From Eledone cirrhosa (lineage: Eukaryota), in NCBI GenBank assembly GCA_964016885.1, contig OZ024741.1:355570001-355634000 (forward strand): a stretch of 64,000 nucleotides of DNA, read 5' to 3'. The position numbers were made by a program, and so were the translations under genes. The notes beneath the pieces are model-generated. The model saw only the letters and a program-made list of their open reading frames with translations. It was not told the origin of the DNA and did not search any database. Each line of letters begins with the position of its first letter. Positions within the stretch are counted from its first letter, which is position 1. Of this stretch, positions 23,066-41,664 are shown piece after piece.

Positions 23066-23201
23066 AGAATTCATTTTTGCTGCCAAATTGGCAGACCTTA
23101 TATCCTGCCTTGTCACAAGAGAAGGACAATTGGTGTTTAGTTGCATCACAGAATCTATTGCAGCTGGTACCATAATAGTTACTTGCACAGCTCCACTGAA
23201 G
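23066..23201 (-). CDS. DSL-domain exon (coding exon 5) of a Delta/Serrate-like gene
   Basis: ttgcag|LQWSCASNYYGTSCNRFCDATKHQLSFSCDKAGYKVCQFGSKNEF+T|gtaagt fits the DSL cysteine spacing with the YYG motif. Confidence 0.85.
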
Positions 23202-23357
23202 CTGCAATTTATCCACATTGGGTGTTTCACAGTCAGAAATGCAACAAAAGAAAAGGGTAAATTTTTAGAATATGAATATATATCATCATTATGATGATCA
23301 TTCCCGCCATTACCACCTAAATATTTTAGATTAGTTTTTTTTTTTTTTTTTTTTTTG

Positions 23358-23838
23358 TGGCAGTTTCAATGAAGTAGGAAGGTTTCAATTGTTTGATCAA
23401 CAGAAACACATACTTATTGTATTAGTATCATGTAAGAGACCATGTAAGTCATGTAAATCGACAATTATCATCAAGACTGTGTATTCTCATTGCTGTGACA
23501 AGAATACACAGTCTTGATAAGGAGCAACAACTCCGAAACAATTGTCGAGTGCTTCCTCTTAGCTACTGCTGGAACAAAAGGATGACGTTGGTCATCTAGA
23601 AAACACACATGGTGTTAATGAAGCTGTTTGCTTGTAAACAAACTGAATATTAATAATATTATAATATTATTATAATATTATTATTATTCACTCACAAATC
23701 CATTTAGATATCCACCATGTTGCAGTGAAAAATAAATTTTGTCTGTAAAATACTTGGTCTCTTATATGATACTAATATAATAAGTATGTGTTTCTGTTGA
23801 TCAAACAATTGAAACCTTCCTAATTCATTGAAACTGCC
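23358..23838. repeat. Fold-back element (about 85-bp inverted arms) enclosing a hammerhead motif
   Basis: ggcagtttcaatgaa...gagacca / tggtctc...cattgaaactgcc. Internal TTGATAA-GGAG-caacaa-CTCC-GAAAC-AATT-GTC at 23514-23546. Confidence 0.8.
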
Positions 23839-24349
23839 TTGTTATATATCCCCCCCCCCCCCCCCCACACACACACACACCACCACAAAAAAAAAACTGA
23901 TTAAAAATAATTGTTTCTACTTTTGGCACAAAGCCGGCAATTAACCCAGTGCATTACTGGTACTTTATTTTATCGACCCCTTAAGGATGAAAGGAAAAGC
24001 TACTTTTGATACCAAACCACCTGGGTCCACTCATGATTTTATAATACTAAAGTGTTTGTTTTAAAGTGTTATATTTACCTAAAAAATCTTCAATTGTAAT
24101 TTGAACTCATAATGTTTATAGTTATAACTAAATACTGCAAAGCAATTTGTCCAATAGTCTATTGATATTACCAGTCCACCTCGCTTCACCACCATAAATA
24201 ATGAGAAAGTTAGTTATATTACTTAATCTCCCCAAATTCTTGATTATTTTCAAACTTATTTCAGGATAAATAAACAGTGTTTTTCATGTTAAATATGGTA
24301 AGTAAAGAGTTAAACAAATTTATAAAAAACTAAAATCATATTTACTTAC

Positions 24350-24523
24350 CATTAATGTTACTGAAAACACTCTGGTATGTTTCAGTGGCTTATAAAACTC
24401 CAAGTTTACCCAGTTGGTTTGTTCAGGTGAGCTGCCCTCCAATTTCTGATATTGGGTAAACATCAACTTTGGTGGATCTCTTGCTGAGACCTGTTGGTAC
24501 ACTGATATTTCCAACACCAGTGG
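24350..24523 (-). CDS. Coding exon 4 of the DSL gene (C-terminal part of the MNNL/C2-like domain)
   Basis: aag|[10 protein letters not shown]...RVFSVTLM|gtaagt, 174 nt, phase 0-0. Joins both neighbouring exons in frame. Confidence 0.75.
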
Positions 24524-24925
24524 CTTTTAGTAGAAATGGTATATATATATATATATATATATATATATATATATATATATATATATATATATGTGTGTGT
24601 GTGTATATATATATATATATATATATATATATATATACATACACATATATATACATACATATATATATTATATATATATATATGTATATATCATTAGTAA
24701 GTAGGTGTATGCACATGTATGTGTATGTGCATGCATATATCGAATATATATGCCTGTGTATATTAGTATATGGTCTTATTTTTATACACTATATCTTCGT
24801 TTACGCATGCATTCACATGCATATACATACATATACATACATATACACACATACACACACACATATATATATACATATGTATATATATATATATATATAT
24901 ATATATATATATATATATATATATA

Positions 24926-38213: not shown

Positions 38214-38589
38214 CTGGAAAATATTAATAATAGTAATTTGTGTAGGAGCTCTGAAATAGCAATGTATATATGAATGTACGCATTGTATATTTAATAATAT
38301 ATTCTATATTTATTTTAAAACATTTTGAAGGCCTTTCACTATGAATTTAAGGTAGTGACTATAGTCACATACCTAGCTTCAGCAAAAACAAAGGGTTTTC
38401 AAAATGTTTTTAAATAAACATGTTATTAAATATACAATACGTACATTAATAATAGTAATTACTTCTTTTATTGGCCACAAGGGACTTAAAAATGCTGGGG
38501 GACAATGCAAGAACAAAGACAACATAGAGTGGGGTTTACATTGAGTAAAAGAAAGGGGACATCACCAGAGGGAAATCAGTAGGTATGAT

Positions 38590-38785
38590 AATAACAATAA
38601 TTGTAATAAATAGCCTATCTCGGTTTCCTTGGCGGGAAGTGACTGAGAGTACAAGACTACTCCCTGGACAGGATGCCAGTCCATCGCAGGGTTAAATCCA
38701 CAGCTATTGCTGGTACTCATTTTCAGTTGAGTATACTGGAGCAATGTGAAATGAAGTGTTTTGCTCAAGAAGCACAACACACAAT
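38590..38785 (-). mobile_element. SINE fragment with CORE-like and V-like domains
   Basis: cttgagcaaaacacttcatttcac... followed by ccctgcgatggactggcatcctgtccaggg. Confidence 0.55.
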
Positions 38786-39229
38786 CTAATCTAATCTAAT
38801 CTAATCTGGCCGAGTTTACACTCGCAAATAAGAAGAACCAGAGCCGCCCCAGGAGCATTGGATTTAGTGTACTTCATATTTGTTTCAGTTGCTGAATACA
38901 ATCAGGGGTCGCTGCTTCTCCTGAAAGTCAATAGTTCTCTTCTAACTCAAGCAGGAGTGCCTTTCCATTGTCAATTTGCATTGATCATCTGCAAAGCCGC
39001 ATTGTTCTCAGAACCACTACACCAGTCTTTTGATGTGTGCAGCTGGAACTACTGCCACCCATTGATTTGGAAACACACAACGCAGTTCAGAAATTGAATC
39101 CACCACATTATGATCATAAATCCAACACCCTTACCACTAGGCCATACACCTCCACTCTACTGGTTAGACCTGTTCAGGGTGGTACATGTTTGCACCTCCC
39201 CTACCAGGGTAGGGGAGGCACACATGCCA

Positions 39230-41165
39230 CCCCAAACATATCCATCCATGAAAACCTCCACCTCATGCAATACATCATAGAGAAGGTGGCTAAGAAATCT
39301 GAGACAGGTGGGGCCCTGATCAACTTATATCAATCGAAAGCTTTTCATAGGGTCAACCATTATTACCTGGTGGCAGTCCTCAAGGCAGCTGGTTTTAGAC
39401 CTGTTTTCAGAGGATAGATCACTGCTATGCACAACGACATCTGCTCTGAAGTTAGAGCAAAAGGTTACCTTTTGGAACCAAACCATTCAACATTATGCAC
39501 CCCGTCCACCAAGGTTGTTCCCTTCTTTTGTATTGACTCTCAAACCATTACTATACAAATTGGAGATGTTGAGGGGCATCCATCACAAACTAAGATGTGG
39601 GAGATTCGGATTAGCATATGCCAACGAAGTCACTGTCGTAGTGTCAAACACCAAACACACTGTGGTGATTGACACTGCTCTCAGGGAGTACAAAGTAGTT
39701 ACAGAAGCGAAAATTAACCAGGAAAAGTTGATGGGCTTGCAGCAGGTCCATGCTGTCAATCAACATCGTCAAGCACTGGATGGACAGACTGGTTAAAATG
39801 CTAGTGGTCTGGTTTGGACTGGACCTCTAGATGGACAAAAACTGGAATGAGATAATGAGCAGAGTGGCCTCTCTCACCCAGAAATTGGCCAAGAGGAAGC
39901 TATCCCTGAAAGGTTGGGCAGAGGTAGCAAGTGCATACACCATGTCCATAACTTACTACTGCCTTATCATCATGCTTTGTCCTGGTCCATGTCTGACTGA
40001 ACTGAAGCTGTTACTCTTTTACTTTTTGTGGAAGGGACAGGTTCCACTGGTTAGGTGGTCCATTTGCTGTCAAGATCTGCTGTATGGAGGACTGGGCGTG
40101 CTATGGCTGATAATGGGCAATCATGCACTGTGGCTATGACATCTCCAAATTTTCCTTGATAGTGAGCAGGCATGGTTGCTGAACTTGTTTTTCCTCAGCT
40201 CGCCTCCTTGATGGAACTGCAGTCATGGGTCAAGCGAAGGCCAACAGCGAGACTAGAATGACTTCAAGAGTTCACAGCCCTCTGCCAATCTAGCAGTGTG
40301 ATTGGTGGAGACTCCACCTTGACATTCTATTGAGAGTTAGTGGAGGGTAAAAGTGATGACATTCTTGGGGAGCTCCTGAGCATCAATGATAATCAACTAG
40401 CCAATCTTTTCCAGAGAACTTTTGATCCAGGACCTATGGATAATTTCCAGAAATTCCTGACATGGCAGTGCTACCAGGGAGCATTGCTAGTTCAAGATAA
40501 ATTCTACAGGTATGGAAGTGCCATCAACCAGACTTGTCTAAGATGTGTGTAGTGTGACAAAACCATCCTTCACACACTTGTCAAGTGTCCGAGCATTGCT
40601 GACTTGTGGGCTTATGTACTGTCACATGTAAGATGGTTCTGGTTATCAGCTGAGTCTACCATGAAGATTTCCCTGCTACCTTCCTTTAGCCGGAAAGAGC
40701 AGGAAGTTTTTATCTGCCGGGTGGCTGTGGCAAAAGAGGTTGTGAGGTGGACACATCTGAAAGGGTTGAAACCAAAGCCCTGATCAACTTTTTCAGGTTT
40801 CATTTGAAGAGGAAAATCAGGGTGGAGAAGGAAGTGCTGTATTCCAAGCAGTTTGTTGAAAGATAGCCCTAGTGAATGAGTCTGCTCTAAGTGTGCACCT
40901 GTAGATTGGAGGAGGACAACTGGGTGAGGGCACTTGACTTAGTGGTAAAAGTGACCATGGCTTTTTGTGAGCTTTCTCCATGTGTGACATTCGGAAGTCC
41001 CACCTATTGGGGAATTTATTTTGTTTGAATTTTTACATGTTTTTCCTTGTTTTTGTTAAAAACTTTTTACATACCAGAACCCACACTGTACTGTCCTGTG
41101 CTGTTCTTAATGTTTTCTTAATGTGAGCCCTGTGTGGCTCATAAAGAAACCCTTATTATTATAAT
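39230..41165 (+). mobile_element. Degenerate Tx1/L1-clade LINE
   Basis: SIHENLHLMQYII, INLYQSKAFHRVNH, LSLKGWAEV, FLWKG and a C-terminal CLRC. Many stops. aataaa-like end. Confidence 0.75.
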
Positions 41166-41628
41166 TATTTGAAACTTCCATATTTTGCCAAGTGTTAAGC
41201 TGACACCTCAAACAAAATTTGGTAATAAACACATAAAATCAGAAATTATTATTATTATTATGGAGAAATTCATATCTTGAGTTAAAAATTAGTAATTTGG
41301 CCACCACCCAGCTATCCTATCATTCAACAACACCACCACCTCCACCCGCCACTACGACCACACTAAAAATAAAGACATCAACGAAACAACCGTTATTGTC
41401 ACCACTAAAACAACCATCATGGCCATGACTGTCGCTGACTTGGTCTGTGACACCCTAACAAACCTTGCTAGCAGGGACCCCCAGACCCCATTGTAAATGA
41501 TGCTACTGATGATATAGGCTTAGGTGGAATTGACACTATGGTAAAAGAGACCCCCCCCCCCTCCTCCCCACGCTGCCACTGCTACAGCTACCCCACAAAC
41601 ACCACCAATACAACCAAAAAGATCTTAC

Positions 41629-41664
41629 CTGTGTTAAAAGTAGAAAATAAGTCCCTGTACCCAT
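41629..41664 (-). CDS. First coding exon of the DSL gene (start of signal peptide)
   Basis: ATG GGT...MGTGTYFLLLTQ|gtaaga, phase 0. Continues into FVFIFGNS to form a hydrophobic signal peptide. In-frame stop upstream; acceptor at ~41710. Confidence 0.65.

Follow-up and report, generated by a model that had tools for sequence, protein, structure and literature searches.

A 64,000-nucleotide stretch of the Eledone cirrhosa genome (positions 355570001-355634000 of contig OZ024741.1, called G000:C2 below, in the 3.0-Gb assembly GCA_964016885.1; hereafter the window) carries on its minus strand the first exons of a predicted gene for a divergent relative of the Notch ligands Delta and Jagged. The product is a predicted single-pass type I membrane protein of 1263 amino acids, in which a signal peptide, a C2/MNNL-like region and a DSL domain (the latter two referred to as the head) are followed by a linker, 24 EGF repeats, a transmembrane helix and a 27-residue tail. 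What appears to be new in this protein is a conserved furin-type motif, RIRR, in the linker that joins the DSL domain to the first EGF repeat (EGF1), at which cleavage would part the head from its membrane anchor. Exon coordinates outside the window are given on G000:C2, and papers are cited by their PubMed Central (PMC) numbers.

Gene structure

An earlier, sequence-only reading of the window had joined five minus-strand exons into one gene. All five were recovered where it had placed them, with AG acceptors in exons 2-5, GT donors in all five, fitting phases and the same translation of 223 open codons; the three N-glycosylation sequons were also borne out, at residues 48, 64 and 105. The exons did not prove to be the complete gene, as the fifth ends on a phase-1 donor and 18 further exons follow outside the window, so that the five make up the first fifth of the whole. 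Since exon 5 closes one base into a codon, ahead of a strong donor, the gene was expected to continue. Pattern and tblastn scans over 614 kb of contiguous genome revealed, downstream and on the same strand, exons for EGF repeats and one for a transmembrane segment. The closed model comprises 23 exons over 117 kb (Table 1) and 1263 codons with no internal stop; all 22 introns are GT-AG, and AATAAA immediately follows the stop codon. We consider the splice model with all 23 exons highly probable. Exon 1 has little homology support; when all 336 ATG-to-GT phase-0 candidates from exon 2 up to window position 57900 were compared, its donor scored best. The acceptor of exon 4 is the weakest among the 19 exons used to train the splice-site model. 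A hydrophobic run and the alignment with the homologue P0073, described below, point to a signal peptide of about 20 residues.

Reading through the donor of exon 5 (window 23057-23065, minus strand) completes the sixth DSL cysteine and meets a stop three codons on, which would give a 226-residue head, a possible secreted C2-DSL isoform. A word-based search of sequencing runs, with a query stretch containing a microsatellite, returned 24 rows: 21 contained only 0.05 of the words, which is no evidence, and the remaining three were strong but cover intron as well and are thus probably DNA.

A furin-type motif between the DSL domain and EGF1

The linker exon emerged when the splice-site model (19 training exons) was run over the 43 kb separating the DSL exon from the first EGF exon. 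Eight candidates passed, three of which share one donor and carry RIRR; the 78-nucleotide form supplies the missing sixth DSL cysteine. The linker so obtained (residues 225-256, about 32 amino acids) is cysteine-free and has RIRR at 239-242. Furin and other proprotein convertases recognise the consensus R-X-[K/R]-R. RIRR is the sole site of this kind in the ectodomain of the studied protein, and likewise in that of P0073; the chance of such a motif in a 30-residue linker is 0.002-0.01 per protein. The linker of P0073 lies at the same place and is acidic; though otherwise unalignable, it too has RIRR at its end. The AlphaFold model of P0073 gives it a predicted local distance difference test score (pLDDT) below 50 and no secondary structure, and the DSL domain scores 78-93. 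RIRR agrees with the furin-type consensus and would be exposed in the secretory lumen, in a predicted disordered linker. Because the linker is cysteine-free and the cysteines of the head are ten, an even number, no disulphide need span the motif. Judged by these features of the sequence, furin-type cleavage at RIRR is reasonably probable.

The linker comparison covered six other non-canonical DSL genes of the genome. For two of the six (L005 and L006) no R-X-[K/R]-R motif was found in the short intron after the DSL exon, and for L008 there were two intermediate exon candidates without the motif; in the other three (L007, L009 and L012) the next matched exon completes the DSL domain and then enters EGF directly. 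A full-text literature search, PMC10970066 included, found a furin-type site between DSL and EGF1 mentioned nowhere in the text covered, which is weak evidence of absence, most subscription papers being outside the coverage.

The DSL domain and its Notch-contact face

Pfam confirmed exon 5 as a member of the DSL family with E 2.5e-8 and a score of 34.5 bits, the cut-off being 24.2. The domain spans residues 183-224 and has six cysteines and a YYG motif, the codon of the sixth cysteine being split by intron 5 and completed by the linker exon. Among PDB sequences, the head profile matched DLL4, DLL1, Serrate and Jagged best, with E values of about 1e-5 to 5e-4. The strong divergence noted in the sequence-only reading is borne out, and both the R-x-R-x-D-x-F face and GW.G are truly lost. 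Jagged1 contacts Notch through F199, R201, R203, D205 and F207 (PMC3415683); the corresponding residues here are F195, D197, T199, H201 and L203, one of the five being kept and the last position hinging on gap placement. Canonical ligand genes of the same genome keep three to five of these residues. At the R201 position all three homologues have Asp, a charge reversal, and the second DSL loop is one residue shorter than in canonical Delta and Jagged.

The C2/MNNL-like region

The region before the DSL domain, of about 160 residues, has four cysteines (37, 42, 59 and 72) in common with P0073. No Pfam family matched exons 2, 3 or 4. The case for an MNNL/C2 domain turned out weaker than first claimed: language-model features, position and cysteine pattern speak for it, but Pfam MNNL did not match and a shallow profile-profile test failed. 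The ESM Atlas features of P0073 residues 20-183 taken alone had MNNL clusters as their nearest neighbours (0.91, 186 shared features), and the N-terminus of DLL4 aligned with the head profile below the threshold. On this sequence evidence, the region is likely a C2 domain. Folded from its single sequence, P0073 reached a pLDDT of only 35. In its alignment-based model the DSL domain and the EGF repeats came out well and the C2 region did not, and the Foldseek matches of that model were driven by EGF, with a TM-score of at most 0.16 by query length. No C2 exons of paralogues were detected by the head profile among 24,298 open reading frames (ORFs) of the loci examined.

EGF stalk, transmembrane helix and tail

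According to the consensus patterns commonly used, 12 of the 24 six-cysteine EGF repeats carry the O-fucose site, 12 the O-glucose site and 11 the strict calcium-binding consensus. By their scores EGF1 and EGF2 are EGF of the ordinary kind; they stay below the EGF_DL_JAG and JAG1-like_EGF2 cut-offs, which a Jagged control passed, and are not of the DOS type. The last five EGF exons ahead of the transmembrane exon belong in alternation to two similar types, a pattern suggestive of internal exon duplication. About 22 cysteine-free residues separate EGF24 from the transmembrane helix and leave no room for a VWC domain. A single hydrophobic stretch exceeds 1.6, near residues 1204-1239, and the helix ends at 1236. 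The motif NxxN plays a role for Neuralized. The 27-residue tail contains two lysines and one YxxPhi and has neither NxxN nor an ATEV end.

Homologues and integrity of the gene

The family is known from three sources, namely the studied genome, P0124 and P0073. P0124, a 133-amino-acid UniParc record, shares 63% identity with exons 3-5 and stops where exon 5 stops. P0073, a 626-amino-acid Logan protein on a 3,892-nt contig, has a head, linker and EGF1-8 in one frame and can be aligned from its signal peptide as far as EGF9, with 28% identity of the head across exons 1-5 (E 3e-26). Seven of its eight complete EGF repeats match best the same-numbered repeat of the studied gene, all eight score above the best among 30 EGFs of the nearest paralogue cluster, and five above all 1,967 other EGFs compared. 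Because of the like-numbered matches and of these five, P0073 is regarded, by sequence comparison, as an orthologue of the studied gene. Its single frame on a short contig suggests a spliced transcript. P0124 and P0073, which come from other sources, support the splicing model.

The DSL exon, compared with 1.84 billion representatives, gave 35 matches, with only P0124 above 50% identity; the head profile matched only P0073 among 1,643 candidates. For one EGF exon, a word-based search listed 120 of 265 matches, and all those listed, P0073 included, were at most 52% identical. A word-based homologue search with exon 2 retained none of 16 candidates.

The same material bears on the view that the model fuses two genes into a chimera, a secreted C2-DSL gene and an EGF gene of its own, or that the locus is a pseudogene. 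The DSL exon lies 43 kb from the first EGF exon, read-through closes the frame after the DSL domain, and P0124 ends at that very point; all this would fit such a view, as would the nine nonsynonymous and zero synonymous changes between the two copies of the gene present in the assembly (see below). P0073, on the other hand, joins head, linker and EGF1-8 in one frame within 3,892 nt, and a second signal-peptide exon is not needed; the 9:0 count has p 0.13 under neutrality, both copies are intact in frame, and the changes in EGF1 lie within a locally divergent block. We regard this view as very improbable.

Other DSL genes of the genome and the question of orthology

A DSL profile search of the genome scored 136 candidates and gave 13 matches, 12 of them over the cut-off. 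Delta-type structures are the best matches of L001/L002 and of L003, Jagged/Serrate those of L004. Two Delta-type genes (on C6, present twice, and on C4) and one Jagged-type gene (on C28), all on other chromosomes, keep their Notch-contact motifs intact. This fits the set of Delta1, Delta2 and Jagged that was reported for octopus (PMC8166818). At least six further divergent DSL genes occur in the same genome.

Since Delta and Jagged genes are separately present and the architecture differs, orthology of the studied gene to canonical Delta or Jagged is considered excluded at the level of sequence, in agreement with the sequence-only reading, which had set the gene apart from ordinary Delta and Serrate. 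A phylogeny (13 rows, 142 columns) placed the gene on a long branch, grouped with the cluster near 90.9 Mb of G000:C2 with support values of 90/95, unstarred and with a long-branch warning. Approximately unbiased (AU) tests rejected no grouping (both Deltas p 0.41, one Delta p 0.31, Jagged p 0.12) and are thus compatible with descent from either the Delta or the Jagged lineage. That neither grouping is rejected is what can be said for a fast-evolving ordinary Delta or Serrate orthologue; the separate Delta-type genes on C6 and C4 and Jagged-type gene on C28, together with the 24 EGF repeats, the lack of DOS repeats and of an ATEV end, and too little space for VWC, make such an orthologue extremely improbable.

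The cluster just named (L005, L006 and L008, G000:C2:90.87-90.98 Mb) consists of three compact DSL-EGF paralogues with degenerate DSL domains, no DOS and tandemly repeated EGF exons. It is possibly the sister group of the studied gene, with which it shares the degenerate DSL domain, similar ordinary EGF1-2 and absence of DOS; it differs in that the DSL exon appears to join EGF1 directly and that no motif-bearing linker was seen. Another non-canonical ligand type, represented by L007 and L009 (G000:C4:259.9-260.1 Mb) and L012 (C1156), has a recognisable MNNL start and an intron-split DSL domain followed by ordinary EGFs; L115 (C4:34.8 Mb), grouped with this type, has an MNNL match and no DSL match listed nearby. 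The Delta-type gene found twice (L001/L002 and L112/L113, G000:C6:93.80-93.91 Mb) has near-identical exons about 71-78 kb apart and possibly represents another false duplication, comparable to that considered below for the studied locus.

Proposed action of the protein

Canonical Notch activation needs an endocytic pull exerted through the membrane anchor of the ligand. In the mechanism we propose, a proprotein convertase would cut after Arg242 in the secretory pathway. With no disulphide across the cut, the C2-DSL head would leave or stay attached only non-covalently. Uncoupled from the anchor, the head could not pass on endocytic pull, and any residual Notch binding would compete with Delta and Jagged; so degenerate a Notch face would allow weak binding at most. 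What remains, the glycosylated EGF rod, would stay at the cell surface and act there either as a Notch-like decoy or in adhesion, as a stalk. A net negative action on Notch, in which the freed head damps and does not activate, is a tentative proposal that we rate somewhat short of even, judging from the sequence features. Precedents exist in the divergent ligand Dll3, which is non-activating and inhibits in cis (PMC2171428), and in DSL-only ligands, which were proposed as competitors of complete ligands (PMC2504490); Uif (PMC3340373) offers a lead for an EGF-rich antagonist. Taken as a whole, a conserved, lineage-restricted two-part DSL precursor with constitutive furin cleavage, a diffusible head modulating Notch at a distance and a 24-EGF decoy left behind is rather unlikely to hold in every part.

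Several observations weigh against this proposal. Basic motifs can serve other ends, and the RIRR linker is seen in two sequences only, since P0124 ends before the linker. A 192-nt form of the linker exon has a higher acceptor score than the form adopted, but in it Ser replaces the sixth DSL cysteine. The AlphaFold model of P0073 was built on a shallow alignment (A4) with seven misplaced N-terminal fragments, and its C2 region reaches a pLDDT of about 40, with seven predicted strands; by hhalign, this region scored 15.8 against a shuffled maximum of 16.8 (40 shuffles, shallow profiles). P0073 groups with the studied gene in only 34% of bootstrap trees. The tail lysines and YxxPhi would allow the ubiquitination and endocytosis that active ligands undergo, and a face so degenerate may fail to bind Notch altogether, which would favour a Notch-independent function.

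In such a function the head would bind another partner or a lipid and the EGF rod would serve in adhesion or matrix, cleavage being optional. The loss of four of the five contact residues, with the charge at the R201 position reversed throughout the three homologues, agrees with it, as do a C2 region diverged beyond Pfam MNNL and the likeness of 24 EGFs, 11 of them strictly calcium-type, to generic EGF-rod proteins. Nevertheless, the full ligand order (signal peptide, C2-like region, six-cysteine DSL domain with YYG, EGF, transmembrane helix) is kept in distant orthologues, and no result points to another partner; we hold a Notch-independent function possible, if doubtful.

Alternatively, the protein could be an activating non-canonical ligand, either uncut and pulling by its tail or acting as a diffusible DSL head with a co-ligand, as proposed for DSL-1 and OSM-11 of Caenorhabditis elegans. 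The DSL ligands of C. elegans are without the DOS motif and still signal, and soluble DSL-1 exists (PMC2504490); the two lysines and YxxPhi of the tail, and the complete secreted head that exon 5 read-through would yield, are in line with this. Considering the degenerate Notch face, the tail without NxxN and the three canonical ligand genes kept in the same genome, activation of this kind seems unlikely.

Duplicated block and neighbouring features

The whole window lies inside a head-to-tail pair of units of about 190 kb (G000:C2 355298341-355490158 and 355490158-355677797). Their join contains no N. The units differ by 957 mismatches in 147,608 aligned bases (0.65%) and by many insertion differences. 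Through one of the nonsynonymous changes between the gene copies, EGF1 has an additional, unpaired cysteine in the lower copy. The intron bins nearby diverge just as much, for which reason positive selection on EGF1 was rejected. The simpler reading is that of uncollapsed haplotypes, and the block may be an assembly artefact; a recent true tandem duplication is a possible alternative.

Exons of a family-B DNA polymerase, with Pfam REV3_N and DNA_pol_B matches, lie in the window and continue beyond it, head-to-head with the DSL gene; by sequence likeness, the gene is presumably POLD1. It is duplicated as well, its lower copy being cut by the duplication junction and left without the last matched exon, and its copies differ by one nonsynonymous and two synonymous changes over six exon stretches. 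Of two tandem arrays, that with the unit of about 506 nt was seen in the lower copy only and that with the 48-nt unit in both copies. Among the reverse-transcriptase-like ORFs of the window there is one 919-amino-acid frame with endonuclease and reverse-transcriptase motifs; by eye, we would place these ORFs among RTE and Penelope-like (GIY-YIG) elements. A C-terminal exon which presumably belongs to an SLC22-type transporter lies close to the duplicated block, on its outside.

Table 1. Features of the DSL-EGF locus and its surroundings (LINE, long interspersed nuclear element; LTR, long terminal repeat)
Feature	Coordinates	Strand	Support
Exon 1: start codon, residues 1-12 of predicted signal peptide	window 41629..41664	-	
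Exon 2: remainder of signal peptide, first half of C2/MNNL-like domain	window 38003..38213	-	
Exon 3: middle of C2-like domain	window 37349..37461	-	P0124 (from residue 90) and P0073 alignments
Exon 4: second half of C2-like domain	window 24350..24523	-	P0124 alignment
Exon 5: DSL domain	window 23066..23201	-	Pfam DSL match
Intron 5: 25,518 nt, LINE-rich, runs past left window end	window part 1..23065	-	
Linker exon with RIRR, 78 nt	G000:C2 355567547-355567470	-	splice-score scan
EGF exons (n = 16)	G000:C2 355550096 to 355498244	-	
Last exon: transmembrane helix, tail, stop	G000:C2 355494826-355494609	-	
Reverse-transcriptase-like ORFs of non-LTR elements	window 886-2226, 2837-5132, 11179-13938, 17124-19728, 31733-32941, 42519-44531, 60200-61489		
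Family-B DNA polymerase exons	window 57907-58083 on to G000:C2:355680557	+	Pfam REV3_N and DNA_pol_B matches
Tandem array, unit about 506 nt	G000:C2 355391900-355400152		
Tandem array, unit 48 nt	G000:C2 355475339-355478900		
C-terminal exon, presumably SLC22-type	G000:C2:355711255-355710814	-	

Relation to known ligands and significance

The studied protein shares with canonical Delta and Jagged the domain order, the six-cysteine DSL domain and YYG, and differs from them in the lost contact face, the shorter second DSL loop, EGF1-2 not of the DOS type, the inserted linker and the 27-residue tail. Unlike Serrate/Jagged it has no juxtamembrane cysteine-rich VWC domain, and unlike canonical Delta it has 24 EGF repeats and no ATEV end. 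Vertebrate Dll3 differs from the studied protein, whose EGF stalk is far longer and which has a furin-type linker and two tail lysines, such as Dll3 is not known to have. The two resemble each other, with no orthology implied, in a divergent DSL domain and in the proposed non-activating, inhibitory behaviour (PMC2171428). C. elegans DSL-1, with its DOS co-ligand OSM-11, is like the studied head a DSL module without DOS that could act off the membrane (PMC2504490); DSL-1 is encoded as a secreted protein, whereas a soluble head of the studied gene would need proteolysis of a membrane precursor.

The closest descriptions concern lophotrochozoan Delta-like and DSL-like genes, in which the EGF number varies from 0 to 75 and MNNL is often undetected in protostomes (PMC2770060, PMC5356439). 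In the classes of Gazave, 'Delta-like' genes have fewer than seven EGFs and 'DSL-like' genes an extra domain, and canonical Delta is defined by about nine EGFs of conserved spacing and an ATEV end (PMC5356439). Such genes share with the studied one the signal peptide, DSL domain, variable EGF count, transmembrane segment, lineage specificity and an origin undecided in trees; the studied gene differs in its 24 EGFs and in a linker with a conserved furin-type motif between DSL and EGF1, a linker of which the text covered makes no mention (PMC5356439, PMC2770060, PMC8166818). Divergence alone is ordinary, as divergent Delta-like and DSL-like genes are already described in lophotrochozoans, which lowers the novelty, and the conserved linker motif raises it; the studied gene may itself sit unremarked among the 138 DSL genes in Fig. 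S1 of PMC8166818.

If cleavage fails, the gene is one more among many divergent DSL-EGF genes known in molluscs. In coleoid cephalopods, Notch maintains retinal progenitors, and only Delta and Jagged are noted as ligands in the available text (PMC10970066); a head-releasing relative of these ligands would bear on the Notch biology of coleoid cephalopods. We did not find a soluble Notch modulator made by precursor cleavage described for any DSL ligand. Notch signalling is contact-dependent since the binding head is tied to the membrane of the sending cell, and a built-in cut between head and anchor would, if real, turn one precursor into a source of a secreted and possibly long-range modulator of Notch.

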